A stretch of 64,000 bases of DNA from positions 6,626 to 70,625 of the forward strand of contig JBJMJD010000009.1 in assembly GCA_045806525.1 (NCBI GenBank). The letters run 5' to 3'. Below the pieces are notes generated by a model, which was not told the origin of the DNA, did not search any database, and saw only the letters and a program-made list of their open reading frames with translations. The first letter of the stretch is position 1, and each line of letters opens with the position of its first letter. A program made the translations under genes and the position numbers. The stretch comes from Gaiellales bacterium (GTDB lineage: Bacteria > Actinomycetota > Thermoleophilia > Gaiellales > JAICJC01). Below, one piece after another: positions 12,268 through 57,713 of this stretch.

Positions 12268-13467
12268 CTAGCCCGCCGCGGCCTGCTGCGCCCGGTTGGT
12301 GATCACCTCTCCGGACTCGAGGTCGAAGAAGTGGAATCGGTCGGTCGCGATCGCCAGCTCCACCTCGTCGCCCGCGCGCGCCGGGCAGCGGGCGTTGACG
12401 CGGGCCGTGCAGATCGTCTCGTTGGCGTCGGCCACCAGCGGCACCACGGTGCTGTCGGCGGCGTCCGGCTCCGCCGCCGCGCGCACCGCCTCGGTGGCCA
12501 CCGGGGCGATGTCGAGGCGGAAGATGACGTTGATCTCGGAGCCCAGCTCCTCGACCACGTCTGCCCGCACGTGCAGGGTGGGAGAGCCCTCGTCCCGCCC
12601 CAGTGCGGCGTCCTCGAAGTCGGCCGGACGCAGGCCCAGCACCAGTGAGCGGCCCTCGTAGGCGCGCAGATCGATGCCGTCGGGAACCGGCAGCCGGTGC
12701 TCGGCGAAGGCCAGCTCGCCGCCGTGCACGGTGGCCTCGATCAGGTTCATCGACGGCGATCCGATGAACGCCGCCACGAACAGGTTGGCGGGCTCGCGGT
12801 AGAGCGTCTGGGGCGTGTCCAGCTGCTGGACGACGCCGTCCTTCATCACCGCCACACGGTCGCCCAGCGTCATTGCCTCGACCTGGTCGTGGGTGACGTA
12901 GATGGTGGTGGTGTGCAGGGTGTCGCGCAGGCGTGCCAGCTCAGCCCGCATCTGCACCCGCAGCTTGGCGTCGAGGTTCGAGAGCGGCTCGTCCATCAGA
13001 AACGCCTGCGGCTCGCGCACCATGGCACGGCCCATGGCGACGCGCTGCCGCTGGCCGCCCGAGAGCTGTGCCGGCTTTCGGCCGAGCAGCGTGTCAAGAC
13101 CCAGCACCTGTGCCACCTCATCCACCTTTGCCTTGCGATCGGCCTTGGGCGCGCCGCGCAGCTTCAGGCCCAGGCCGAGGTTCTGCTCGACCGTCATGTG
13201 CGGGTAGAGCGCGTAGTTCTGGAACACCATGGCGATGTCGCGGTCGCGCGGGGACATGTCGGTCACGATGCTGTCCCCGATCACGACCTCGCCGGTCGAG
13301 AGCTCCTCCAGCCCTGCGATGATCCGAAGCAGCGTCGACTTGCCGCAGCCGGACGGGCCTACGAGCACCATGAACTCGCCGTCCGCGACCTCCAGGCTGA
13401 CGTGGTCGACCGCGACCACCTCGGACCCGAACACCTTCGTCACCTCGTCCAGCAGGATCCGCGCCAC
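12268..13467 (-). CDS. Sugar ABC transporter ATP-binding protein (MalK/MsiK/UgpC type)
   Basis: 399 aa. Walker A GPSGCGKST, signature LSGGQRQRV, Walker B FLMDEPLSNLD, plus a C-terminal regulatory domain. Confidence 0.9.
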   Translation of the reverse strand: MARILLDEVTKVFGSEVVAVDHVSLEVADGEFMVLVGPSGCGKSTLLRIIAGLEELSTGEVVIGDSIVTDMSPRDRDIAMVFQNYALYPHMTVEQNLGLGLKLRGAPKADRKAKVDEVAQVLGLDTLLGRKPAQLSGGQRQRVAMGRAMVREPQAFLMDEPLSNLDAKLRVQMRAELARLRDTLHTTTIYVTHDQVEAMTLGDRVAVMKDGVVQQLDTPQTLYREPANLFVAAFIGSPSMNLIEATVHGGELAFAEHRLPVPDGIDLRAYEGRSLVLGLRPADFEDAALGRDEGSPTLHVRADVVEELGSEINVIFRLDIAPVATEAVRAAAEPDAADSTVVPLVADANETICTARVNARCPARAGDEVELAIATDRFHFFDLESGEVITNRAQQAAAG

Positions 13468-14480
13468 TACCGCTCCCTTCCAGGGGATGTCAGCCGATCG
13501 TGCGTCACCGCCGCGCGCAGCTCGGCATATGCTCGCCGCCCGGCCCCGATCTCGTCAAGGCCGAGGAAGGCGGCGCCCAGCACCGGCGGGGCGTCCAGCA
13601 CGCTCACACGGGCGTCGGCGGCGACCGCCTTCACGCCCTGCTCGATGTGCCCGAGCAGCCGAGGGTCGCGCCCCCGCGCCACGCCGCCGCCGAGCACCAC
13701 GTCGCTGTCGCGGCGGGTCATGGCCAGGCGGCGCAGGGCCGAGACCACCATCGCCACGATCTCGTCGGCCAGGCGGTCGACGATGTCCTGGGCGGCCGTA
13801 TCACCGGACCCGGAGCTGGACAGCACCAGACGCGGCAGCTCCGTGAGGCTGTGCTGGTCGATCGTTCCCAGGTAGATGGCCTCCATCAACTGGTGGGGTG
13901 TGCGCAGGCCGAAGTGGGCCGGCACCGACTGCTCGAGCGAGGTCCTCGGCCCGCGGCCGTCGCGTCCGCGGATGGCCGCGCGCAGCGCCTGCAGGCCGAT
14001 CCAGTCGCCACCGCCGCCGTCGCCGGAGATCTCGCCGATGGCGGCGTAGCGGACGATCTTGCCGGTGGGGGAGACGGCACAGCAGTTGAGGCCGGTGCCG
14101 CAGACGACCCCGACGCCCCACGACCGCTCGGTGCCGGCGCGGAGCACGGCGAATGTGTCGTTGCGCAGGACGACCCGCTCAGCCCAGCGGCGCGCGTGCA
14201 GGCTGCGGCTCAGGCGCCGGTCGTCCACCGGCAGATCGGCGCCGGCCAGGCAGAGCACGGCGGCATCGGCGATCGGGCCCGGGCCGGGCGTGATGCCGGC
14301 GCTGCGGCAGGCGCGGGCCACCGTCGCGTCGAGTCGGGCGAAGGATCCGTCGTGGTCATGCGGCGCGAAGCTGGCGCCGCGCCCACGGGCGGCGCCAAGC
14401 ACGCGCCCTCCGCGGCTGAGCAGCACCGCATCCAGCTTCGAGTTGCCGCCGTCCACGGCCAGCACCGCCGGTCTAGCCAA
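13467..14480 (-). CDS. BadF/BadG/BcrA/BcrD-type ATPase (N-acetylglucosamine-kinase-like sugar kinase)
   Basis: 337 aa. N-terminal phosphate-1 motif VLAVDGGNSKLDAV, then VVCGTGLNC and VVLGGGVA. Confidence 0.7.
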   Translation of the reverse strand: MARPAVLAVDGGNSKLDAVLLSRGGRVLGAARGRGASFAPHDHDGSFARLDATVARACRSAGITPGPGPIADAAVLCLAGADLPVDDRRLSRSLHARRWAERVVLRNDTFAVLRAGTERSWGVGVVCGTGLNCCAVSPTGKIVRYAAIGEISGDGGGGDWIGLQALRAAIRGRDGRGPRTSLEQSVPAHFGLRTPHQLMEAIYLGTIDQHSLTELPRLVLSSSGSGDTAAQDIVDRLADEIVAMVVSALRRLAMTRRDSDVVLGGGVARGRDPRLLGHIEQGVKAVAADARVSVLDAPPVLGAAFLGLDEIGAGRRAYAELRAAVTHDRLTSPGRER

Positions 14481-40585: not shown

Positions 40586-42151
40586 TTACAGCCCGTCGTG
40601 CACCATCCGGCCGATCGTCTCGTACTTGGCGCGGTCGTTCGATTTCAGATACAGCGCGTATCCGATACCTCCCACGAACACCAGCACGTCGATTATCACC
40701 AGGTACCAGGCGTAGGTGTAGCCGGCGCCGAGGAAGTCGATCTTATCGATCGCGACCCCCAGCACCGCCAGCTGACCAACCACCGAGATGATCGGGGCGA
40801 TCGTGTGGTTCCACATCCGGTGCTCACCCGGATGATGGGTGCGGAAGTAGTTCCAGATCGCCACCGACACCAGCGCCTGGATGAACAGGATCAACACCAC
40901 GCCCATGAATGCGGCCAGGCCGTAGAGCTGGACGTAGGCCTGCGACGACGCGGCGGTCTGGTTCGGAGCCGTCGTGGTGAAGAAGTAGAACGCCAGCACG
41001 ATCAGGGCCGCGATCACGGACTGCGCGATCGAGGCGATGTGCGGGCTGCGGTACTTCGGGTGCGTCCGGCCCAGCGCCGACGGCAGCACCTTCTCGCGTC
41101 CCAGCGAGTAGAGGTAGCGGGCCGTGGTGTTGTGGAAGGCCATGCCACACGCGAATGAGCCGGTGATGATCAGGTAGCTCATCACGTCGCTCAGGAACTG
41201 GTTGCCGAACTCCTTGGCCGGGGCGAGATAGAACGCTGCCGGGTCGGACACGGCCACCAGTGCCGCGTCGTGGGTGGTGAAGTACGACGAGAGCGCCGCC
41301 CACGAGGTGATGGTGTAGAAGATGCCCAGTCCGATCACCGAGACGTACATCGCCCTCGGCACGATCTTCTTGGGGTTGCGCGACTCCTCGCCGTAGTTAG
41401 GAGCCATCTCGAATCCCACCCACGACCAGAAGGCGAAGAACACGCCGACCGCCCATGCGCCGGCCGCGACTGCGTTGTCGCCGCTGCCGGATGCGGGCAG
41501 GTTCTTGAAGGCGTTCAGCGGGTTGATGGCCGCTGCCTGGATGTTGTTACCGCCGTGTCAGAACACGACCAGGTCGAAGATCAGCAGTGCGATCACCTCG
41601 CTGATCAGCGCCAGGCCCAGCACGCGTGCCGAGATGTGCACGTCGAAGTAGGCGAGGATCGAGATCAGCACGACCATGAACAGCGCGACGATCACCCATG
41701 AGGGGTGATAGCCGTACTGGGCGAGCTTGAGCGTGCCGAAGTATGCGAAGCCCCCGCACAGCGAGGCCTCGAACACCGAGTAGGCAACCACCATTGCGAG
41801 ACCACTGGCCATGCCCAACTCGCGGCCGAGCCCGTGGCTGATGAAGCTGTAAAAACCGCCCGCAGCGGTGACCTTGCGGGCCATGGATACGTACCCCACC
41901 GAGAAGATGGCGAGGATGACCGTCGCGAACGCAAAGCCGGCGGGTGTGCCGACGCCGTTGCCGTATCCGACTGACAGCGGCGTGTTGAAGAGCATTGCGG
42001 AGATCGGCGCCGCGCCGGTCACCGTCAGGAAGAGAACGCCGGCGAGACCAACGGCGCCGCCGTGCAGCTTCTGGACATCGTCGCGTTCGGAGACGTCGAC
42101 GCTGTCGATCTGGATCATCCCCTGATGGCCAGGGGGTTCCATGCCTTCCAC
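40586..42151 (-). pseudogene. APC-family amino acid permease interrupted by a single in-frame TGA (41558-41560)
   Basis: ORFs 41558..42535 and 40586..41443 are in the same frame. Read through, the junction is ...LIFDLVVF*HGGNNIQAAAINPLNAF...VFFAFWSWVGFEMAPNYGEESRNPKK. The total is 522 codons from GTG 42151, which is preceded by AAGGAGGG. Confidence 0.75.
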
Positions 42152-42876: not shown

Positions 42877-43599
42877 TTACATCGCCGCGACGACCCGCCG
42901 CCACGCGGTCATCTCGCTCACGCCTAGGTGAGTGGCGATCTGTGCATAGGTGTAGCCGTTGAGTCGAGCCGCTCGCAGTCCCTCTGGGCCGACGGGCTTC
43001 CCCGGCCGCAGGATCCCGATCAACGGCTTCGGATGCGACGATCGAATTTCGTGCCTCCCGTCCTCGACCCATTCTCGGAGCAATACTCGGGCTTCGTCCG
43101 GATCTGGGGAGAATCGGTCAAGCGTCGGTCGCACGCTTAGAAACGGCTCTCGCGGGCCATAGCCGAGAGTCGCGCGGCAGCTCGACCAGGGCCAGCCTTC
43201 GGGCCGCTTGCACAAACCCGCTCTCACGGGGTTGAGCGGGATGTACCGGATTACCTCGCGCAGGTGCTCGTCCGTGAGGATGAGGCCGTCGGAATATCGC
43301 CGCTGGAACAGATGCCCGATCCGCTCGTACTTCTCGTTGAAGCGATGGGCGTAGGTGCTGTTGAGCCACTGCATGCCGATCGCGATGTTCGGTTCGGGAG
43401 TCTCGATCAGCAGGTGGTAGTGGTTCGACATCAGGCAGTAGGCGTGAACCTTCCAGCCGTGGCGCTGCTTGGCCCGTGCGATCGTCTGTAGGAGCAACAC
43501 CCGATCCTCGTCCGAAGCGAAGATCTCGCGCCGGTTGTTCCCACGCATGGTGACGTGATAGAGGCCGCCGGCTACCTGGGGTCTGCGTCTTCGAGGCAT
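42877..43599 (-). CDS. IS200-like / REP-associated tyrosine transposase (Y1 HUH family) with C-terminal HTH
   Basis: 240 aa. Motifs GLYHVTMRGNNRREIF and AYCLMSNHYHLLIE (HUH = HYH). RYIPLNPVRAGL carries the catalytic Tyr context. Also WPWSS, and a C-terminal HTH GYTYAQIATHLGVSEMTAWRRV. Confidence 0.85.
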   Translation of the reverse strand: MPRRRRPQVAGGLYHVTMRGNNRREIFASDEDRVLLLQTIARAKQRHGWKVHAYCLMSNHYHLLIETPEPNIAIGMQWLNSTYAHRFNEKYERIGHLFQRRYSDGLILTDEHLREVIRYIPLNPVRAGLCKRPEGWPWSSCRATLGYGPREPFLSVRPTLDRFSPDPDEARVLLREWVEDGRHEIRSSHPKPLIGILRPGKPVGPEGLRAARLNGYTYAQIATHLGVSEMTAWRRVVAAM

Positions 43600-43716: not shown

Positions 43717-44322
43717 CTACGCGCCCTCCTGCAGCGCTTCCACCGCTGCCTGATATCCCTCCACGGCCTCTGCGTCGCGCCCGCTCATGATCAGCCGGCC
43801 GGTTGCGCCGAGCAGCGCCGCGTAGATCAGCTTCACCGGTGCTCGTTTCTCGGCCCGGTTGGCCGCCGTGGCGATGTAGGCCGCCGGGGTCGCCTCGATC
43901 AGGAACATCGTCTCGTCCTGCAGCAGCAGGTTCGCGCCGCCCATCCTGTTGATCAGCTGCGCCTGGTTGGGATGCACCCGCGTCACCAGCTCCGACGCCA
44001 CCACCTCCGGCCGCCTCGCGTCCGCCACCGTCAGCTTCAGCCGCTCCAGCACCGCCCGCGCCGCCTCCCGCACCGCAACCGGGTCGCGCCCGTGCAGCTC
44101 CAACGTCCCGTACTGCCGCTCCACCACCTGCAGCCCCGACCGCACGTCCGCGTTCTTCACCGCCGCGTTCACGAGCGAGAACACCTCGTTCGCCGGCGCC
44201 ACCTCCACGTACAGCTGCGCGAACCCCGCCGACGGCGGATCGCCCTGGCAGGTCTGCGCCACGTAGGCCGCCCACTGCGGCTGCATGGCGTCGATCTCGA
44301 CGAAGGCGCGGAGGTCGGCCAC
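43717..44322 (-). CDS. Divergent tandem-domain BMC shell protein (BMC-T-like)
   Basis: 201 aa, made of two roughly 100-aa halves. Each half aligns by eye to the in-window BMC-H core. Example: LIEATPAAYIATAANRAEKRAPVKL...GRLIMSGRDAEAVEGYQAAVEA against [25 protein letters not shown]...[21 protein letters not shown]. The first half reads LYVEVAPANEVFSLVNAAVKNADV...GTLELHGRDPVAVREAARAV. It is the last gene of the shell operon. Confidence 0.55.
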   Translation of the reverse strand: MADLRAFVEIDAMQPQWAAYVAQTCQGDPPSAGFAQLYVEVAPANEVFSLVNAAVKNADVRSGLQVVERQYGTLELHGRDPVAVREAARAVLERLKLTVADARRPEVVASELVTRVHPNQAQLINRMGGANLLLQDETMFLIEATPAAYIATAANRAEKRAPVKLIYAALLGATGRLIMSGRDAEAVEGYQAAVEALQEGA

Positions 44323-44324
44323 CT

Positions 44325-44570
44325 CTACCGGGACGGATCCACGATCGCGACCACCGCCGCGTCGGTCGGAACGCCGCGCGTCTGATCCGTCTCACGCGCC
44401 GCGCCGCCCATCGCGACCAGCACCATGTCGCCCTCTCCGGCGCCCACCAGATCCACCGCCACCAGCTCCCCGCCGCCCCCCACCGGGGTCACCGTCAGCA
44501 GGCTGAACCCGGTTAGCCCGGCCGCCTTCTGCGTCGCCACCGTGCTTCCCGTGACATGGCATCGCTGCAT
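44325..44570 (-). CDS. BMC vertex protein (BMC-P, EutN/CcmL family)
   Basis: 81 aa: VTGSTVATQKAAGLTGFSLLTVTPV...LVAVDLVGAGEGDMVLVAMGGAAR...DAAVVAIVD. This matches the EutN/CcmL pattern. Confidence 0.85.
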   Translation of the reverse strand: MQRCHVTGSTVATQKAAGLTGFSLLTVTPVGGGGELVAVDLVGAGEGDMVLVAMGGAARETDQTRGVPTDAAVVAIVDPSR

Positions 44571-44579
44571 CTCGTCCTC

Positions 44580-45056
44580 CTAGCTTTGCGGCCGCAGTCG
44601 CACGGCGCCGTCGAGGTCGTTCCAGGGAATGATCGCGTCCACCGCCGCCTGTATCCGGTTCAGCGCCATCAGCAGGTGCTCGATCACGACCGCGTACTCG
44701 CGCGACGTGTCCGGCCGCCACTCGGCCAGGATCGACGCCGCCCGACGCAGCAGCTGCACCGTCTCGGGCATCTCCCACTTCGCCGTCCGCGCCGCCGTCC
44801 GCTCCAGCAGCATCGCCGTCACCGAGCACAGCTCCGGCAGCCGCAGGTCGCCGTCCAGCGCCGCCTGCCGCACCACCTGCAGCTGCTCCCCGGCCCAGAA
44901 CAGGTCGAAGTTGCAGTACAGCACGCACGGCAGATTGCCCATCGGCGGCAGCGTGAACCGCCGCAGCGCCGCCACGTCCGGCGGCTCGCCGATCCAGCGG
45001 TCGACCGTGAACTCGCGCAGCTCCTCCACCAGCATCGCCGCCGACACGTAGGCCAT
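44580..45056 (-). CDS. Hypothetical protein (158 aa) embedded between shell genes
   Basis: ATG at 45056 shares one nt with the upstream stop (TGATG). The N-terminus MAYVSAAMLVEELREFTV looks like a short amphipathic helix. No family recognised. Confidence 0.45.
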   Translation of the reverse strand: MAYVSAAMLVEELREFTVDRWIGEPPDVAALRRFTLPPMGNLPCVLYCNFDLFWAGEQLQVVRQAALDGDLRLPELCSVTAMLLERTAARTAKWEMPETVQLLRRAASILAEWRPDTSREYAVVIEHLLMALNRIQAAVDAIIPWNDLDGAVRLRPQS

Positions 45057-45438: not shown

Positions 45439-45735
45439 TCAGCGCTTCGCCGCGGCCGGTGCCACCGCCGCCGGCAGCACCTTCATCACGTCCTCGTGCG
45501 GCCGCGGGATCAGGTGCGCCGACACCAGCTCGCCGGTCTTCTTGGCCGCCGTCGCGCCGGCGTCGATCGCCGCCTTGACCGCACCCACGTCGCCACGCAC
45601 GGCAACGGTCACGTAGCCGCCGCCGATCGACTCGCGGCCAAGGATCTCGACGCTGGCCGCTTTCACCATCGCGTCCGCCGCTTCGATCGCGGCCACCAGC
45701 CCGCGCGTCTCGATCAGCCCCAGTGCTCCATCCAT
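45439..45735 (-). CDS. BMC hexamer shell protein (BMC-H, PduA/EutM type)
   Basis: 98 aa. [61 protein letters not shown] is near-consensus PF00936. Confidence 0.95.
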
Positions 45736-45749
45736 GTCTGCGTCCTCCT

Positions 45750-47546
45750 TTAGGACCCGTACCAGTCGAGGGTGTCAGTTCCGATGTTCAGGTGAATGTT
45801 CTTGGACTCCAGGTACTCGCTCAGCGACTCCAGCCCCAGGTCGTAGCCGGTGCCGCTCTCCTTGTATCCGCCGAACGGCGCCTCCGACGGGTAGACCCCG
45901 TACTGGTTGACCCAGATCGACCCGGCCTCCAGCCTATGCGCCACGCGGTGCGCGCGCCCGACGTCGCTCGTCCAGATCCCGGCCGCCAGCCCGTAGCGCA
46001 CGTCGTTCGCGATCCGCACCGCCTCATCCTCGCCGTCGAATGGCACGATCACCACCACCGGCCCGAAGATCTCCTCCTGCGCGATCCGCATGTCGTTTGA
46101 GCCCGCGAAGATCGTGGGCTCGATGAAGTTGCCGCCGGCCAGCTCCGGGTGCGACGGCCGCACGCCGCCGGCCACCACCGTCGCCCCCTCCGCCTTCCCG
46201 ATCTCGACGTACTCGTAGACGCGCTGGCACTGGCGCTCGTTGATCAGCGCACCCAGCTGAGTCGACCAGCGGTGCGGCATGCCGACCCGGATCCCGGACG
46301 CCTTGTCGGCGAACCGCCGCACGAACTCGTCGTAGACCGGCCGCTCGACCAGCACCCGCGACCCGGCCGAGCAGACCTCGCCCTGGGCCAGGTAGATGCC
46401 GAACACCGAGCCGATCACGGCCCGCTCCAGGTCGGCGTCGGCGAACACGATCGACGGCGACTTACCGCCCAGCTCCAGCGACACCCGCTTGATCGTGCCG
46501 GCCCCCGCCCGCATCACCGTGCGCCCGGTCACGGTCGACCCTGTGAACGCGATCTTGTCGACGCCGGGGTGCTCCGCCAGCGCCGCGCCCGCAGTCGCGC
46601 CCAGCCCCGGCACCACGTTCAACACTCCCGGCGGCAGCCCCGCCTCCAGCGCGATCCGGCCCAGCTCCAGGCACGTCAGCGGTGCCAGCTCGGGAGCCTT
46701 CAGCACGACCGTGTTACCGGCCGCCAGCGCCGCCGAGCCCTTGCGGCAGGCGATGTGCAGCGGAAAGTTCCAGGGGATGATCATGCCCACCACGCCCATC
46801 GGCTCCTTGCGCACGTAGTCGAGCGAGCTGGTCGGCATCGCCAGCACCCGCCCGTCGATCACGCGCACCAATCCCTGGTAGTAGCGCCACGGGTCCCAGC
46901 AGGCCGGCAGGTCGACCAGCGCCGCCTCGCGGATCGGCTTGCCGACGTCGTACGACTCGATCCGCGCCAGCCGGTCGCGGTCGGCCTCGATCAGCTCCGC
47001 TATCCGAAGCAGGATCCGCGACCGCCTCTCCGGCGCCATGTCGCGCCAGGCCGGCAGCGCGTCGCGCGCCGCGCGGACCGCCCGGTCGATGTCGTCGGGC
47101 CCGGCCGCCGCTACCTCCACGATCGTGCGGTTGGTGGCCGGATCGATCGTGGGCACGGTCTCACCGCCGGCGGCTTCGCGCCATTCGCCGTTGATCAGCA
47201 GCTTCGTCTGCAGCGAGCCGGTGTCGGGCAGGCCCTCGATCGGCGCACCGCCGGGCGCCGGCGGCCGGGAGCCGCCCTGCACCCGCCGCCCGGCGGCCGG
47301 CTGTTCGCGCACCAGCCCCGCCAATGCCGGCGCCGGCAAGCCGCCCGCGGTTACAGGAAGCGCCGCCACCACGTCGCCCGCGGGCTGGGGCTGGGACGTC
47401 GCGCCACCCTCGACCAGCCGCACGCCGTGCATCCGGGCCGCGTCCAGCGCCGCGTCGGTCAGCGTCGTGTGCTCGCGCACCATCAGCTCCCGCTCTCCCT
47501 GCTCGGCCAACGCGCGGATGTCGTCGGCGGTGACGAACTCCTTCAC
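45750..47546 (-). CDS. NAD(P)-dependent aldehyde dehydrogenase (hydrolytic type) with about 115-aa N-terminal extension
   Basis: GTG at 47546 overlaps the upstream stop (GTGA); 598 aa. The core starts near residue 115 ([11 protein letters not shown]). Hallmarks [33 protein letters not shown]. The extension is a roughly 46-aa module ([45 protein letters not shown]) plus a Pro/Gly/Ala linker. The remainder of track ORF 45750..49091 is a shadow. Confidence 0.9.
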
Positions 47547-48838
47547 CGCTGGATCCGCCCCACCAGAGGCACCCCGGTGATCGCCTCGCACTCGAGCGTC
47601 AGCGCGCGCAGATCCTCGGGCTCCAGGTTGTGCACGTCCGATTTTCCGCAGGCCCGCGCCAGCATCTGGATCTCCATGGTCATGGCGTTCAGGAAGTTCA
47701 CCACACGCTCGGTGGCCGAGTCTACGTCGAGCCGCGCCATCAGTTCCGGGTCCTGTGTGGTGACCCCGACAGGGCAGAGGCCGGTGTGGCACTCGCGGCA
47801 GGTGCCCGGCGCCACGCCGAGCCTGGCGTAGTCCTCCTCGTAGAGCGGCGCGTTGCAGTTGAGTGCGACCATCGCGGCGGTGGCGATGTAGACGGCGTCG
47901 GCGCCCAGCGCCAGCGCCTTGGCGGCATCGACGCCGTTGCGGATGCCGCCGGCTATCACGATCTGGACATCGCCGTAGGCGCCGATGTCGATCAGCGCCT
48001 CGCGGGCCTCGACCACCGCCGCCAGCGTGGGCACGCCGGTGTGGTCGAACAGCAGCAGCGGTGAGGCCGCCGACGCGCCCTCGAGCCCGTCGATCACGAC
48101 CACGTCGGCGCCGGCCTTGACCGCCAGCCGCACGTCGTCGAACACCCGGCAGGCGCCCAGCTTGACCCAGATCGGCACCCTGTGGCGGGTGGTCTCGCGC
48201 AGCTCCTCGATCTTCAGGCGCAGGTCGTCGGCGCCCAGGAAGTCGGGATGCCGCACCGGCGAGCGCTGGTCGACGCCGGGCGGCAGGTCGCGCATGCCGG
48301 CCACCTCGTCGGACACCTTGAAGCCCAGCAGCACGCCGCCGGTGCCGGGCTTGGCGCCCTGGCCGACCACGATCTCGACCGCATCCGCCTCCGCCATGTG
48401 GTGTGGGTTGTTGCCGTAGTGGCTGGGCGTCACCTGGTACACGAGCGTCTTCGACGCCGCCCGCTCGCGCGGGTGCATGCCGCCGTCGCCGGTGGTGGTG
48501 GAAATGCCAACCTGCGACGCCGCCCGGCCGAGCGCCTCCTTTGCATTCGCCGAAAGCGCTCCGAAGCTCATGCCCGAGATCGCGATCGGCGTCTCCAGCA
48601 CAACCGGGTTCGCGGCCCTCGTTCCCAGTGTGGTGCGGGTCTGGCAACGCTCGCGGTAGCCCTCCAGCGGCACTCGTGACAGCGTGCACGGGATGAAGGT
48701 GAGGTCGTCGAAGTTGGGCACCCGGCGGGTGGTCGAGAAGGCGCCCATCACGTACCGCCCGAGCTCGGCCTTCTGGCGGATGTCGGCCAGCGTCTCCTGC
48801 GACCAGACGTGGCTGGGACGGGACGGGTGCTCGATCAC
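47543..48838 (-). CDS. Glutamate-synthase-type FMN subunit (GltB domain 2 / N-methylglutamate synthase subunit C-like)
   Basis: GTG at 48838 overlaps the upstream stop (GTGA); 431 aa. Motifs LEGYRERCQTRTTLG, PIAISGMSFGALSANAKEALGRAA, TTTGDGGMHPRER, GQGAKPGTGG, IAGGIRNG. Confidence 0.85.
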   Translation of the reverse strand: MIEHPSRPSHVWSQETLADIRQKAELGRYVMGAFSTTRRVPNFDDLTFIPCTLSRVPLEGYRERCQTRTTLGTRAANPVVLETPIAISGMSFGALSANAKEALGRAASQVGISTTTGDGGMHPRERAASKTLVYQVTPSHYGNNPHHMAEADAVEIVVGQGAKPGTGGVLLGFKVSDEVAGMRDLPPGVDQRSPVRHPDFLGADDLRLKIEELRETTRHRVPIWVKLGACRVFDDVRLAVKAGADVVVIDGLEGASAASPLLLFDHTGVPTLAAVVEAREALIDIGAYGDVQIVIAGGIRNGVDAAKALALGADAVYIATAAMVALNCNAPLYEEDYARLGVAPGTCRECHTGLCPVGVTTQDPELMARLDVDSATERVVNFLNAMTMEIQMLARACGKSDVHNLEPEDLRALTLECEAITGVPLVGRIQR

Positions 48839-49545
48839 AGCGCGTCCCTCCAGATCGAGAACTCCTTCTTGTCGTAGCGCCACAGCTTCCCGGCCGAGCG
48901 CACCTTCTGCCACTCGCCGGCAGGCGCGAGGCCGTGACTACCGCAGAGGTCGGCCAGCCAGGCCAGCTCGTCGGCGGACGGTGGCTCGCAAACCGTGTCT
49001 GAGCCCAGCTCGGCGATGCGGCCACCGCAGAACAGCTCACCCTCGTACATCGAGTCGCCGAACCCGGGCCCGGCGTCGCCGCACACCACAAGCCGCGTGC
49101 GCTGGTTCATGAACCCCGACATGTACCCGGTGGATCCGCCGATCACCAGCGTGCCGCCCTTGCCGGCGATCGCCGACCGCGCGCCCGCGTCGCCCTTGAC
49201 GACCACCAGCCCGCCGCGCATCGAGGCGCCGGTGGAGCTGCCGCTATTTCCGCCCACGACGATGCTGCCGTCCATCATGTCGGCGCCCAGCGACCAGCCT
49301 GCGTTGCCGTCAACGGCAACGTCCAGCCCGTCGGACAGGCCGCCGCAGAAGTAGCCGACGTCGCCGCGGAACCGGACGGCCGCGCCGGGGTGGTCAAGGA
49401 AGCCCACCGCCAGGCTGTGCCGAGATCCCGGGTGCAGTACGTCCACCGTTCCGGCTCCGTCGTGCAGCAGCTGCCGTAGGCGGTCGTTGATCTGGCGCGT
49501 GCTGAGGCCCTGCGCGTCCAGCGTGGCCGGCGCTAGCGTGTCCAT
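48835..49545 (-). CDS. GXGXG-motif protein (GltB domain 3 / N-methylglutamate synthase subunit B-like)
   Basis: 236 aa. Beta-helix repeats VDGNAGWSLGADMMDGSIVVGGNSGSSTGASMRGGLVVVKGDAGARSAIAGKGGTLVIGG. Confidence 0.85.
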   Translation of the reverse strand: MDTLAPATLDAQGLSTRQINDRLRQLLHDGAGTVDVLHPGSRHSLAVGFLDHPGAAVRFRGDVGYFCGGLSDGLDVAVDGNAGWSLGADMMDGSIVVGGNSGSSTGASMRGGLVVVKGDAGARSAIAGKGGTLVIGGSTGYMSGFMNQRTRLVVCGDAGPGFGDSMYEGELFCGGRIAELGSDTVCEPPSADELAWLADLCGSHGLAPAGEWQKVRSAGKLWRYDKKEFSIWRDAL

Positions 49546-50450
49546 GCCCGCGCCTCGCCGCCCGCCAGCTCGTAGGTGTCGAAGTCGGCGCGGTCGCCGA
49601 ACGCCTCGGCCAGGGCGATGCCTTCGCTGACGACGGCCACCCAGTCGTCGGTCTCGGCCACCAAACAGGGCTTCGTGGAGAAGCGGTCGCGCGCGACGCC
49701 GAAGCCCTCGGCGGTCGACACCAGATAGGTGAAGGATCCATCTAGGTCGTCGATCGAGTCGCGCACAGCATCGTCCAGCGGCACGCCGGCCGCCATCCGG
49801 TCGGCCAGGTACACCGCGACGAACTCGGTGTCGTTGCCGGTCTGGAAACGGTGGCCGCGCATCTCGAACAGGCGCCGGTTCTTGTAGTAGTTGGTGACGT
49901 GGCCGTTGTGGACGACGGTCACGTCTGGGAACGGTCGCGCCCAGAACGGGTGCGAATGGTTCACGTCAACCCGCGACTCGGTCGCCATTCGGGCGTGACC
50001 GATCGCGTGGCTGTAGCTCGTTCCCAGCACGCCGAACCGCTCCGCCAGCTCGCGGGCGTCGGACGTGTGCTTGAGCAGCTCCAGCGATGTGCCGACCGAG
50101 AACACCCTCACGCCGGGTGCGCTGCGCTCGATCGCATCGGCCAGCGCCCCGATGTCACCGTCACCGCCGTTTCGCGCCAGCCCCAGCCGCCAGTAGCCGT
50201 CGCGGAACTGCTGGTCGGAGAGCTCGAACCCGGCCTCCGAGACGCCGTCGGACACCGCCGCGCGCGTGGCCTCACCGCCGGCCTCGCCGGCCCAGGCCGA
50301 AGCCACCAGGTCGCCCTGGAAGGGTGCGCCGTAGAGCGACAGCCCGGTCGAGTCCGGCCCGCGGCCGCGCAGCGCGGCAAGCATCGCCGTCAGCGTGGCG
50401 GCGACATCGACGCCGTCACGCTTTGCAAGGAATCCGGCGATGCCGCACAT
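49533..50450 (-). CDS. Class-II (Ntn) glutamine amidotransferase (GltB domain 1 / N-methylglutamate synthase subunit A-like)
   Basis: 305 aa, starting MCGIAGFL with nucleophile Cys2. Also RGPDSTG and HARMATES...HPF. Confidence 0.85.
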   Translation of the reverse strand: MCGIAGFLAKRDGVDVAATLTAMLAALRGRGPDSTGLSLYGAPFQGDLVASAWAGEAGGEATRAAVSDGVSEAGFELSDQQFRDGYWRLGLARNGGDGDIGALADAIERSAPGVRVFSVGTSLELLKHTSDARELAERFGVLGTSYSHAIGHARMATESRVDVNHSHPFWARPFPDVTVVHNGHVTNYYKNRRLFEMRGHRFQTGNDTEFVAVYLADRMAAGVPLDDAVRDSIDDLDGSFTYLVSTAEGFGVARDRFSTKPCLVAETDDWVAVVSEGIALAEAFGDRADFDTYELAGGEARAWTR

Positions 50451-50510: not shown

Positions 50511-51998
50511 TCACCGGGCCAGGTCGGCGAAGGCCGGCGCCAGCGCGTCGAACAGCAGCCGGTAGCGGCGGTAGCCCTGCTCGTAGGCGGCCGCAGCATC
50601 AGGGTCGGGATGGTGCTGCTCGGACGCCAGACGGCACATCGCCGCGGCCGCGGCCGGTACGTCCGCGTGCAACTCGCCGCCCGCGGCTGCCAGCATCGCG
50701 GCGCCACGGGAGGTCGTCTCGACGTCCTCGCTGTATCCGACCGGCAGCCCCGTCACGTCGGCGCGCATCTGACGCACCAGGGCCGAGCGCGCGCCGCCTG
50801 CCACGCAGACCACGCGCTGGCAGCCGAGCCCGGCTGCGGTGATGGCCTCGACGACGTCGCGCAGCGCGTAGGCCGAGCCCTCGAGCAGCGCCCGCACGAG
50901 GTGTCCGCGCCCGTGCGCGGGCGTCAGCCCGTACCAGGCGCCACGGGCTTCCGCCTCCCAGCGAGGCGCCATGGCGCCGCCCATCCAGGGCAGGAACACG
51001 AGCCCTTCGCTGGCCGCCGGCACCGCCTCGGCCGCCCGGTTGAGAGCCTCGTAGTCGGCACCGCCGCCCAGCTCGTCGCGGAACCAGCGGTAGTTGGCGC
51101 CGCTCGCCCAGCCCGGGTTCTCGAGCAGCCAGCGGCCGGGTGCGGCGTGGGGATGGCACTCGGCCACGCGACCGGCGTCGCGCAGCGGCCGGTCGCTGAC
51201 CGCACACACGGGCTCCGCTGTGCCGAGCACGTCGCAGACGGCGCCAGGCTCGGCCAGGCCGGCGCCCAGCGTGGCCGCCATCTCGTCGCCGCACCCACAG
51301 ATCACGAGCGCCTTCTCGCCGAGCCCGGTGGCGTCGGCGAACCCGGCGCTGACAGTGCCGAGCACCGCGTCGGCGGACACGACCGGCGGCAGCAACTCGG
51401 CGTCGATGCCGAACGCATCCAGCAGCGTCGTGTCCCAGCTGCCGGTGTCCGGATCGAGCAGCATGGTGGAGGACGCATTCGACCGGTCGACCGCGTCGGC
51501 TCCGCAGGCAACGCGCACCATGTACGAGCCGGGAAGCAGCGCCCGTGCCGTCCGCGCGTAGTCGTCGGGACGCTCCTGCGCGACCCAGGCCAGCTTCGCC
51601 GCCACATGCGACCCGTCCAGGTTGCAGCCCGACCGCCGGTACCACTCGTCGGCGTCGACGCGCGCCTCGGCCTGCCGGCAGAGCGGGTCGGCGCGGCGGT
51701 CCATCCAGATGATCGCGGGGCCGACCGGCTGCGCGTTGCGGTCGACGCAGACCAGCCCGTCCAGCTGCGAGCCGAACGAGATCGCCCGCACCCGGCGCAG
51801 GTTCACCCGTGCCGCCAGGTCGCGGAACCCGTTCACCAGCGCCGCGCGCCAGTCACGCGGGTCCTGCTCCACCCAGCCCGGACGCGGGTAGCGGAGCGGG
51901 TGCGGCTGGTATGTGGTGGCCAGCCGTTCGCCGGCCGCATCGAACACCGACAGGCATGACCCCTGCGAGCCGACGTCGATGCCGCAGACCAGCTCCAC
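50511..51998 (-). CDS. FGGY-family carbohydrate/polyol kinase
   Basis: 495 aa. Motifs VCGIDVGSQGS, GWVEQDP, PAIIWMDRRA, and the C-terminal FGGY half GGGARS. Confidence 0.85.
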   Translation of the reverse strand: MELVCGIDVGSQGSCLSVFDAAGERLATTYQPHPLRYPRPGWVEQDPRDWRAALVNGFRDLAARVNLRRVRAISFGSQLDGLVCVDRNAQPVGPAIIWMDRRADPLCRQAEARVDADEWYRRSGCNLDGSHVAAKLAWVAQERPDDYARTARALLPGSYMVRVACGADAVDRSNASSTMLLDPDTGSWDTTLLDAFGIDAELLPPVVSADAVLGTVSAGFADATGLGEKALVICGCGDEMAATLGAGLAEPGAVCDVLGTAEPVCAVSDRPLRDAGRVAECHPHAAPGRWLLENPGWASGANYRWFRDELGGGADYEALNRAAEAVPAASEGLVFLPWMGGAMAPRWEAEARGAWYGLTPAHGRGHLVRALLEGSAYALRDVVEAITAAGLGCQRVVCVAGGARSALVRQMRADVTGLPVGYSEDVETTSRGAAMLAAAGGELHADVPAAAAAMCRLASEQHHPDPDAAAAYEQGYRRYRLLFDALAPAFADLAR

Positions 51999-52001
51999 GC
52001 G

Positions 52002-53054
52002 TCAGCCGTTCGGGGCGACGACGACCTTCAGCGCCTCACCCGAGCGGATGCGCTGAAAGGCCGCCGGCGTGTCGTCCAGCGAGACAACATCCGACACGAC
52101 CCCGCGGATGTTGTGCGTGTTGCGGCGCAGCATCTCCAGCGCCTGCACCTGGTCGCGGTGCCGGGAGGCGTAGCTGCCGTGCACCGCCACCTCGCGGTAG
52201 TGCAACACGTTGGAGGGGAAGGCGATCGTGGTCGTGCCCTTGGGCAGTCCGCCGAAGTACAGCACCCGGCCCCGCGGCGCCGCCATCTCCATGGCCTGCT
52301 CCTGCGCCTGCACGTTCGAGCACGCCACGATCACGCGGTCGGCTCCGTCGCCGGTCTCGTCCTTGATGAACTGCACGGGGTCGATGCCGGTGGTGTCGAC
52401 GTACCGGACGTTCGCGTCGTTCAGCACTCCGCGGGCCAGATCCAGCCGGCCGGCCGAGGTCTCGAGCAGGTAGACGAGATCGGCGCCCTGCGCCAGCGCC
52501 AGCGCCACATGCGCGGTGCCGACCGGGCCGGCCCCGATCACGACCACGTGCTGCTCGAGCCCGATGTCGAGGTCCTTGTGGCCGCAGATCGCATCCGAGA
52601 GCGGGTCGGCGAACGTGGCGTGCACCGGGTCCAGGCCATCCGGGAGCACGAACACGTTCTTCAGCGCCACCTGCGGTACCGCGACCAGCTCGGTGTAGGC
52701 GCCCTGGTAGTCGAAGCCCATCAGGCCGCCGTTCTGGCAGAGGTGCTCGTTGCCGCCGCGGCAGAGGCTGCAGTGGCCACAGTAGAGCGTCGAGATCACG
52801 TGCACGGTGTCGCCGACTGCGGCCGCCAGGTCGGCGCCCGCGTCCGGTCCGATGTCGAGCACCTCACCGCAGATCTCGTGTCCCAGCACCGCGCCAGGCT
52901 GGATCCGGCGGTCGCCGTTGAAGAAGGTGCGCACGTCGGTGCCGCAGATCCCGCAGGCGGTCACGCGCAGCAGGCAGCCGTCGGCCGGGCAGGTCGCATC
53001 CGCGACCTCGCCCAGGTGCATCTCGCCCGGCCCGTCCCATATCGCCGCCCTCAT
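52002..53054 (-). CDS. Zinc-dependent alcohol/polyol dehydrogenase (MDR family)
   Basis: 350 aa. Catalytic Zn motifs CGICGTDV and GHEICGEV, structural Zn Cys cluster CGHCSLCRGGNEHLC, and Rossmann VVVIGAGPVG. Confidence 0.85.
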   Translation of the reverse strand: MRAAIWDGPGEMHLGEVADATCPADGCLLRVTACGICGTDVRTFFNGDRRIQPGAVLGHEICGEVLDIGPDAGADLAAAVGDTVHVISTLYCGHCSLCRGGNEHLCQNGGLMGFDYQGAYTELVAVPQVALKNVFVLPDGLDPVHATFADPLSDAICGHKDLDIGLEQHVVVIGAGPVGTAHVALALAQGADLVYLLETSAGRLDLARGVLNDANVRYVDTTGIDPVQFIKDETGDGADRVIVACSNVQAQEQAMEMAAPRGRVLYFGGLPKGTTTIAFPSNVLHYREVAVHGSYASRHRDQVQALEMLRRNTHNIRGVVSDVVSLDDTPAAFQRIRSGEALKVVVAPNG

Positions 53055-56378: not shown

Positions 56379-57713
56379 GTGGCCACTGACACCACGATCG
56401 GCGCCGCTCAGGTGCTCGACGGTTGGCGCGCCCAGGGGATCCGCTTCGTGCGGTTCGAGCTGCCCGACATGCACGGCACCAGCCGAGCCAAGATGGTGCC
56501 GATCGAGCGGGCCTACGGCTACGCCGAGTCGGGGCTGAACATGTACGGCGGCGTTGCCGTCCTGGACAGCAGGTCTGACGTCGTGGGTGGAACGCTCTAT
56601 CACGAGGAGGTCGCATACGGCGACCAGCTGCTGTTGCCCGATCTGGAGACGGCCGCGGTGGTACCCTGGCGCGAGGCCACGGCGCGCTGGATCTGTGATT
56701 CCACCTGGGCCGACGGCACCCCGCTCGAGGCGTTGCCGCGGCGGGTCTGGCGCACACAGCTGGAGCGCGCCCGCGCGCTCGGCTACGAGCCCCTGATCGG
56801 GTACGAGCCGGAGTTCTACCTGCTGACCGCCGACCAGGAGCTGCTGTTCGAGGGCTACCACATCTTCAACGTCACGCGGAACACGTACGTGCCCTTCATC
56901 CAGGAGCTGGTCGAGCAGCTGAACGCGTATGGGCTCGAGGTGATCACGGCCAACTGCGAGTACGCCGGCTCGCAGTGGGAGCTGCCCTGCCTGCCGCAGC
57001 GCGGCATGGCCGGTCCCGACCGCTGCTTCTCGTTCAAGAACGCGGTCAAGGAGCTGGCCCACCTGCACGGCTACACCGCCACGTTCATGAGCAAGCCGTT
57101 CGCCGACTCGGCTGGATCGGGGCTGCACACCCACGTGTCTCTGCTGAACGTCGCCGACGGCGGCAACGCGTTCGGGGATGCGTCAGACGAGGCCGGTATC
57201 TCGGCCGCGTGCCGCAGCTTCATCGCCGGCAACGTGCGCCACGCCGCTTCCACCTATGCGCTGCTGGCTCCGACGGTGAACTGCATGAAGCGCCGCCGCA
57301 CGCACACGTTCAGCCCCACCAACGTGTCCTGGGGGCTGGAGGATCGCTCGGCGCTGATCCGGATAAAGGGCGGCACCACCGAGTCGAGGCACATCGAGCA
57401 CCGTGCTCCCACCGGCCTGGCCAACCCATACCTGGTGGGGGCGGCGATTCTGGCGGCCGGGCTGAACGGCATCGAGGACGGCCTCGAGCTGGAGCCGGCC
57501 GCTCATCCGCCGGCCGAGGAGGACGAGTCGCGGGCGAAGCTGCCGACATCGGTGCGCGAGTCGCTGGAGGCGCTGGAGGCGGACGAGCGGATTGCGGGCG
57601 CCCTCGGCCAGGACTTCGTCACCGCCTACGGCGTGATGCGACGCCACGAGCTGTCCCGCTTCGACGATCACGTTACCGACTGGGAACGCAACGAGTATGT
57701 CGAGATCTACTAG
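56379..57713 (+). CDS. Glutamine-synthetase-like ligase (gamma-glutamyl-amine synthetase candidate; GmaS/PuuA/GlnA-like family)
   Basis: GTG at 56379 follows GGAAGGAGGGG; 444 aa. Has a GS beta-grasp N-terminus (IRFVRFELPDMHGTSRAKMVP). Catalytic-domain motifs YEPEFYL, KPFADSAGSGLHTHVSL, NVSWGLEDRSALIRI. Confidence 0.85.
   Translation: MATDTTIGAAQVLDGWRAQGIRFVRFELPDMHGTSRAKMVPIERAYGYAESGLNMYGGVAVLDSRSDVVGGTLYHEEVAYGDQLLLPDLETAAVVPWREATARWICDSTWADGTPLEALPRRVWRTQLERARALGYEPLIGYEPEFYLLTADQELLFEGYHIFNVTRNTYVPFIQELVEQLNAYGLEVITANCEYAGSQWELPCLPQRGMAGPDRCFSFKNAVKELAHLHGYTATFMSKPFADSAGSGLHTHVSLLNVADGGNAFGDASDEAGISAACRSFIAGNVRHAASTYALLAPTVNCMKRRRTHTFSPTNVSWGLEDRSALIRIKGGTTESRHIEHRAPTGLANPYLVGAAILAAGLNGIEDGLELEPAAHPPAEEDESRAKLPTSVRESLEALEADERIAGALGQDFVTAYGVMRRHELSRFDDHVTDWERNEYVEIY

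Follow-up and report, generated by a model that had tools for sequence, protein, structure and literature searches.

The window analysed here, a stretch of 64,000 nucleotides from a Gaiellales bacterium (assembly GCA_045806525.1, contig JBJMJD010000009.1, positions 6,626 to 70,625 of the forward strand), encodes a three-part aldehyde dehydrogenase (ALDH) in an operon with genes for the shell of a bacterial microcompartment (BMC). The protein comprises an N-terminal module of 47 residues that is, by profile comparison, homologous to the extreme N-terminus of the adaptor EutQ, a disordered linker and a catalytic core of the hydrolytic type. ALDH genes with this module are strictly linked to shell genes in related loci, and the module also heads unrelated enzymes. 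In the reading favoured here, to which a probability of about 0.6 is assigned, a coenzyme A (CoA)-independent NAD(P)+ ALDH is recruited to the microcompartment by its own N-terminal extension.

The AlphaFold2 model of the module displays a compact β-α-β-β-α-β arrangement, with strands extending over residues 3-5, 20-23, 27-29 and 43-46 and helices over residues 7-15 and 31-40, at predicted local distance difference test (pLDDT) scores of 87-95 in the full-length model and 93.8 when the module was modelled alone. A canonical encapsulation peptide is a single amphipathic helix of ~15-20 residues, which this two-helix, four-strand prediction of 47 residues does not resemble, so the short helical encapsulation tag envisaged in the first-pass annotation, made from the sequence of the window, is replaced by a folded domain. 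Two further traits of encapsulation peptides, a poorly conserved linker and restriction to shell-associated copies, were both found, together with one shell-linked homolog that also lacks the extension. No Pfam model covers the module, either in the window ALDH or in the other carriers scanned, and hmmscan of the first 58 residues (E ≤ 10) returned only IF3_N (E-value of 0.23). The same search gave no adenosyltransferase N-terminal domain, the type initially suggested for the module, and E. coli EutT scored -0.9 bits against the module profile. Searching the sequences of solved structures with that profile revealed chance matches only, the best being RuvB-like (E-value of 0.027).

The best relative of the module is instead the N-terminus of EutQ. 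Residues 1-47 of E. coli EutQ align end to end with the module (hidden Markov model score of 16.9 bits), and comparison of the two with hhalign gave a probability of 90%, an E-value of 1.5e-6 and 33% identity; as judged from these alignments, the module is homologous to EutQ residues 1-47. A counterpart of the EutQ helical pair H3/H4 was not found, the module being followed by a disordered linker in which no helices were predicted save a three-residue turn. The function of the corresponding EutQ region has been dissected previously. The first 100 residues of EutQ are required for EutM binding (Held et al., PMC4827028), and a 2025 study in Salmonella reported that residues 1-99 are enough to target green fluorescent protein to Eut microcompartments, that EutQ lacking residues 9-41 (H1/H2) no longer associates with the shell and that the encapsulation peptides of EutC and EutE are bound by H3/H4 (residues 62-99) (PMC12487888). 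The module itself may consist of two β-α-β half-units of ~20 residues, one an apparent duplicate of the other.

A search of 5.8 billion proteins revealed ~90 orthologs of the window ALDH from Gaiellales and Thermoleophilia metagenome bins. With lengths of 590-655 residues and identities of 66-96%, they share the start position of the window protein and retain the module. When 38 orthologs were compared region by region with the window protein, mean identity was 70% for the module (range 60-83%), 32% for the linker (range 5-55%) and 81% for the core (range 72-90%). Residues T6, G17, E20, L21, T30 and A33 of the module are invariant. The division into module, flexible linker (56 residues in the window protein) and core thus agrees with what had been proposed from the sequence, as does the position of the start codon. 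Residues 2-21, upstream of the internal ATG (Met22), are conserved in nearly all full-length orthologs, and Met22 is therefore not the start. The GTG codon at 47546, which shares a GTGA overlap with the TGA stop codon of the upstream Glu_synthase-FMN gene, is the real one. It could be argued from the purine-rich stretch preceding Met22, and from the part of the database entries that begin at Met22 or later, that the extension is an annotation artefact or an evolutionary leftover and that the functional protein begins near the ALDH core. This is very improbable, since such a reading is contradicted by the protein-level conservation of the module relative to the linker, by the coupling of the GTG start to the upstream stop codon and by the confident prediction of the module as an independent fold. 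The few shorter entries go back either to a different choice of start codon or to frameshifts in the assembly: L003 has the module upstream in another frame, and P0102, considered as a natural extension-less variant and rejected as such, comes from a frameshifted assembly whose upstream sequence still holds the intact module.

The linker is rich in Ala, Gly and Pro (32 of its 56 residues), varies from 48 to 100 residues among orthologs and is predicted to be disordered, with a pLDDT of ~32 for residues 48-96. Most orthologous linkers contain one or two copies of the motif GGLPxPA[L/I]xGLxR, which is predicted as a short helical turn. The motif is missing in exactly the three loci (L001, L037 and L039) that lack a conserved 158-residue protein encoded in the same operon. 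This co-occurrence is confounded by phylogeny and is treated only as a lead that may point to a partner of the motif.

The catalytic core matches the full Aldedh profile of Pfam (PF00171; residues 122-584, profile positions 1-461 of 461, E-value of 1.3e-171). It contains all the motifs on which its hydrolytic character had initially been proposed: ELGGKSP at residues 358-364 with the general-base Glu358, EVCSAGSR at residues 390-397 with the nucleophile Cys392, and EEIFGPV at residues 491-497 (Glu491/492). Alignment with the acylating E. coli EutE (22-26% identity, E-value of ~1e-7) places LELGGKSP of the window protein opposite AAGAGNPP. The core is, by its active-site motifs, of the hydrolytic (non-acylating) class, because the general-base Glu358 is present where EutE has Ala/Gly. 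The best relatives are all classical ALDHs, and the window protein is not a member of the acylating PduP/EutE clade. The closest solved structures, with E-values of ~1e-137 to 1e-117, are likewise all non-acylating and include 4o6r (E-value of 7e-137), betaine-aldehyde dehydrogenases and ALDH1/2; the top-scoring NCBIfam models were BADH, StyD and HpaE, each below its own cut-off.

The association of the extension with shell genes was evaluated in a scan of one genome per species, which identified 40 module-carrying loci, complemented by three loci from contig look-ups and by tblastn searches with the window proteins. The 40 loci are all from metagenome bins, mostly labelled Gaiellales, Thermoleophilia or unclassified Actinomycetes, with two other labels. 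In all 39 loci with downstream DNA the module-bearing ALDH is followed by BMC-H, DUF3830, BMC-P and BMC-T genes (in L043 BMC-P was not detected by tblastn), and the gene of the 158-residue protein, 73-100% identical across loci, lies between those of DUF3830 and BMC-P in all but L001, L037 and L039. None of the module-bearing orthologs in these 39 loci lay apart from shell genes. Two relatives of the enzyme delimit this rule: an ALDH of 54% identity, whose β-oxidation-like gene cluster contains no shell genes, lacks the extension, and so does an ALDH of 59% identity at L048 (8001-10155), which is followed by BMC-H and a DUF3830 protein of 126 residues before its lower-GC contig ends. The latter locus is, from its gene order, a sister cassette in which no targeting extension can be recognised on the ALDH. 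Specificity for shell loci thus holds for the extension, but not universality among them.

Upstream of the ALDH the loci diverge. A trio of GATase-II-like, GXGXG and Glu_synthase-FMN genes, with or without a kinase and an alcohol dehydrogenase (ADH), precedes it in the window and in about half of the related loci. The trio is absent from the rest, which display either a kinase, a DeoC-family aldolase and Zn-ADHs, or, in place of both sets, genes of the phosphotriesterase-like, amidohydrolase and GFO/IDH families. Since the upstream genes differ between loci, the ALDH-plus-shell cassette is the constant element and the feeding pathway the variable one. In related loci such as L017 and L002 a DeoC/LacD-family aldolase gene (L017, 6653-7534; L002, 4408-5232) lies between those of the Zn-ADH and the FGGY kinase, an insertion that recalls sugar-phosphate (SPU) microcompartments; the window has no DeoC homolog.

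The module is not confined to ALDHs. A profile built from 19 diverse modules and searched against 1.84 billion representative proteins retrieved 208 proteins at E ≤ 1e-3. They include eight EutQ-family cupins that carry the module at residue 1 (E-values of 4e-8 to 1e-4), DUF3830 proteins, an HpcH aldolase and a transaldolase-like protein encoded beside BMC-H and BMC-T. In P0248 the module precedes an adenosyltransferase domain of the PduO/EutT type, the one part of the initially suggested adenosyltransferase connection that was recovered. Three loci, L001, L037 and L039, each encode two module-bearing proteins, with the module at the N-terminus of the ALDH and again at that of the DUF3830 protein (in L001 the DUF3830 gene extends over 13092-13640), which suggests, from the shared domain, that the DUF3830 protein is a second cargo protein. 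In the BMC catalog, EutQ-like N-terminal extensions are described on a lactate/malate-dehydrogenase-like protein of types MIC1 and MIC2, in microcompartment context only, as is a EutQ-like protein of ~130 residues in SPU6 (PMC8217296, supplementary data 2). MIC1 proteins of Methylibium and Rhodococcus plasmids gave weak, shortened matches to the module profile (4.9 and 11.1 bits). The N-terminal extension of the SPU enzyme DERA was also considered and rejected as a different element.

Two kinds of carrier without a Pfam model were also recovered (P0144, P0147, P0172, P0188 and P0143, P0145, P0149, P0163). In the smaller kind, of 110-135 residues, the module is accompanied by a Pro/Ala linker, by the motif KPKGCQHG and by a C-terminal helix resembling an encapsulation peptide; the larger, of 190-250 residues, has two copies of the module together with a ITEAELRELWQNG segment and a C-terminal helix that is conserved. 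By their architecture both have the appearance of proteins dedicated to a scaffold or adaptor role in microcompartments. Carriers P0183, P0145, P0200 and P0163 are located on contigs of 1-2 kb, whose context is uninformative.

Taken together, these features are consistent with a mechanism in which the module would correspond to the shell-binding half of the EutQ adaptor, fused straight to its cargo via a disordered linker of 50-100 residues. It would thereby tether the ALDH to the EutM-like shell with neither a separate adaptor nor a helical encapsulation peptide, and the linker motif GGLPxPA(L/I)xGLxR might provide a second contact, possibly with the 158-residue protein. Within the lumen, oxidation of the pathway aldehyde by the enzyme would yield the free acid, and the organelle would need NAD+ but neither CoA nor phosphotransacylase. 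A free-acid product is in keeping with the lack of a phosphotransacylase: neither the window nor any of 43 related loci yielded a Pta homolog (no sequence search was made for PduL), and no PTAC family is annotated among the operon open reading frames or the called genes of L001-L003. The suggestion in the first-pass annotation that this microcompartment dispenses with phosphotransacylase recycling is thus in line with the gene content. Its view that the ALDH is of the wrong kind for a microcompartment stands in so far as the enzyme is not CoA-acylating; the non-CoA ALDH of the ARO type provides a precedent for such an enzyme (PMC10470539).

Several observations weigh against this mechanism. 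The module and E. coli EutQ are only modestly similar, sharing 33% identity over 45 residues, and the predicted fold of the module gave no significant Foldseek match among solved structures. Shell binding by Salmonella EutQ also needed EutL, and the window operon encodes no EutL-type protein, its BMC-T being of the CcmP/CsoS1D type. On the other enzymes of the operon neither the module nor an obvious encapsulation peptide is present, and the mechanism leaves unexplained how the aldehyde-producing step enters the shell and how NAD+ is recycled inside it. Finally, the module is not the sole route to co-localisation if the ALDH of L048, which lacks it, is encapsulated.

Some of these difficulties would vanish if the module docked the ALDH on the outside of the shell, at its cytosol-facing surface, where the enzyme would intercept escaping aldehyde and could draw on cytosolic NAD+. 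A hydrolytic ALDH at that position would need no cofactor recycling in the lumen, the other operon enzymes have no targeting signal, and a flexible linker of 48-100 residues suits a tethered outer-surface enzyme. Moreover, Held et al. assumed that EutQ contacts the cytosolic face of EutM, and the N-terminus of PduV reportedly targets the outer surface (PMC4827028). This arrangement is nevertheless considered unlikely, since the 2025 study found EutQ to be encapsulated, with its N-terminus linking the shell to internal cargo (PMC12487888), and the ALDH is a luminal core enzyme in every characterised metabolosome (PMC8217296). Were the ALDH and the DUF3830 protein, which both bear the module, to reside outside, the shell would be left with no identifiable cargo.

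Improbable as well is a role of the module in cargo-cargo association, or as a regulatory, ligand-binding domain, with encapsulation conferred by the GGLPxPALxGLxR motif or by piggy-backing. The catalog proposes a possible ligand interaction for the EutQ-like extension of MIC2 (PMC8217296), and a targeting role for the linker motif would agree with its conservation, its occasional duplication, its predicted helical turn and its co-occurrence with the 158-residue protein, as well as with the shell-linked relative at L048 that manages without the module. In EutQ, however, H1/H2 displayed no chemical-shift changes upon binding of a cargo encapsulation peptide, and their deletion specifically lost shell association (PMC12487888). 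Furthermore, the clade comprising L001, L037 and L039 lacks the motif, yet keeps the module on its ALDH and a second copy on its DUF3830 protein, and a shell-gene neighbourhood is the sole common denominator of the module across unrelated enzymes. Recruitment to the shell by the module itself is accordingly preferred.

The features of the locus are listed in the table. The operon is tightly packed on the minus strand in the order PucR/GAF regulator, Zn-ADH, FGGY kinase, GATase-II-like, GXGXG, Glu_synthase-FMN and ALDH, followed by BMC-H, DUF3830, the 158-residue protein, BMC-P and BMC-T.

Table. Coordinates of the module-bearing ALDH and of associated genes in the window.
Feature	Position	Strand	Remarks
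ALDH gene	45750-47546	-	598 aa, three-part protein
N-terminal module (EutQ-N-type mini-domain)	47406..47546	-	aa 1-47, VKEFVTADD...GVRLVEG
Disordered Pro/Ala/Gly-rich linker	47238..47405	-	aa 48-103
Conserved linker motif	47307..47345	-	aa 68-80, 13 residues
Hydrolytic-type NAD(P)-ALDH core and stop codon	45750..47237	-	aa 104-598
BMC-H shell hexamer gene	45439..45735	-	Pfam BMC, E 6e-30
DUF3830/cyclophilin-like protein, 126 aa	45056..45436	-	Pfam DUF3830, E 9e-15
Conserved 158-aa protein	44580..45056	-	No Pfam match
BMC-P shell pentamer gene	44325..44570	-	Pfam EutN_CcmL, E 4e-23
BMC-T (tandem-domain, CcmP/CsoS1D-like)	43717..44322	-	NCBIfam CcmP, E 1.9e-49, below cut-off
GATase-II-like, GXGXG and Glu_synthase-FMN subunits	47543..50450	-	Pfam matches
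FGGY sugar kinase and Zn-dependent ADH	50511..53054	-	Pfam and NCBIfam matches
Glutamine-synthetase-like gene	56379-57713	+	Divergently transcribed

The BMC-H protein is 67% identical to E. coli EutM, and the orthologs of BMC-T are annotated with the CsoS1D_N family. The start of the 158-residue protein overlaps the stop codon of DUF3830, and the segment PPMGNLPCVLYCNFDLFWAGEQLQV of its sequence is highly conserved. When all six frames of the window were searched with the module profile, the ALDH copy was the only one identified. Together with the glutamine-synthetase-like gene, the trio upstream of the ALDH resembles the gene set of the N-methylglutamate pathway of amine utilisation. Directly downstream of BMC-T lies an IS200-type (Y1) transposase gene (42877-43599, minus strand). 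Further along the same strand, an amino-acid-permease open reading frame (40586-41443) matches only the C-terminal half of its profile (positions 194-416) and may be truncated.

The defining traits of metabolosomes are an ALDH that is CoA-acylating, a helical encapsulation peptide on this enzyme and a phosphotransacylase for the recycling of CoA. The window locus departs from all three traits and, unlike the ARO type, offers a plausible route for ALDH recruitment. Its components, namely shell proteins, a classical ALDH and a EutQ N-terminus, are of known kinds, and what is new is their combination, in which a hydrolytic ALDH within a CoA-free cassette bears a EutQ-type domain. About 40 species-level genomes of uncultured but abundant soil actinobacteria contain the cassette, with at least three different gene sets upstream of it, which suggests a modular organelle for handling aldehydes. 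More tentatively, and at somewhat less than even odds, the loci may represent an uncatalogued type of CoA-independent metabolosome, widespread in soil Gaiellales and Thermoleophilia, in which a fixed cassette serves interchangeable aldehyde-generating pathways and loads its cargo by a portable folded domain of the EutQ-N type and a repeated linear motif instead of helical encapsulation peptides. If this tentative reading is correct, the module would found a general, so far unnamed family of microcompartment-targeting domains. The homology of the module ties the shell-binding end of EutQ to a broader family, with no Pfam model, that heads many different enzymes and is therefore a candidate general-purpose targeting tag for the engineering of synthetic compartments. 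The open-access literature yielded no paper on microcompartments in Gaiellales or Thermoleophilia and none linking DUF3830 with microcompartments, and no matching type was found in the text or supplements of the BMC catalog.

Comparison with known systems places the window ALDH between several of them. With hydrolytic ALDHs of the betaine-aldehyde, phenylacetaldehyde and ALDH1/2 types (PDB codes 4o6r and 5gtk) it shares a core that is alignable over its full length and the same Cys, Glu and cofactor motifs, although these enzymes have neither an N-terminal module nor a linker. With EutQ of Salmonella and E. coli it shares a homologous extreme N-terminus followed by a flexible region, in an operon with a EutM-like BMC-H. 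EutQ, however, is an adaptor, whose H3/H4 bind the encapsulation peptides of other cargo and whose C-terminus is a cupin acetate kinase, whereas the window protein lacks H3/H4, has the module fused directly to the cargo enzyme and is encoded with no EutL-type partner. The encapsulation peptides of PduP, EutE, EutC and PduD are likewise terminal extensions with a poorly conserved linker, present only in microcompartment-associated copies. They are single amphipathic helices of ~18 residues, in contrast with the 47-residue domain and short linker motif described here.

Among actinobacterial systems, the ARO type of Micromonospora also combines a classical non-CoA ALDH with shell genes, in a locus that has no phosphotransacylase. 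Its ALDH differs in having no detectable targeting extension, its pathway is the meta-cleavage of 2-aminophenol and its shell set contains no BMC-T (PMC10470539, PMC8217296). The possibility of non-acylating ALDHs had been raised by Axen et al. for loci with an incomplete core (PMC4207490). The MIC1 and MIC2 types, metabolosomes with an incomplete core, share with the window a Zn-ADH and, in microcompartment context, a EutQ-like N-terminal extension on one enzyme (PMC4207490, PMC8217296), and MIC2 additionally contains a glutamine-synthetase-like gene, as the window locus does. In these two types the extension resides on the lactate/malate-dehydrogenase-like protein and not on the ALDH, and the catalog lists the MIC2 ALDH without an encapsulation peptide (PMC8217296). 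The ALDH is of the acylating PduP/EutE type in the two MIC1 loci inspected; assignment of the window locus to MIC1 was rejected on this ground and on its different gene content. A EutQ-type N-terminal domain fused to a hydrolytic ALDH thus sets the window locus apart from each of these systems.

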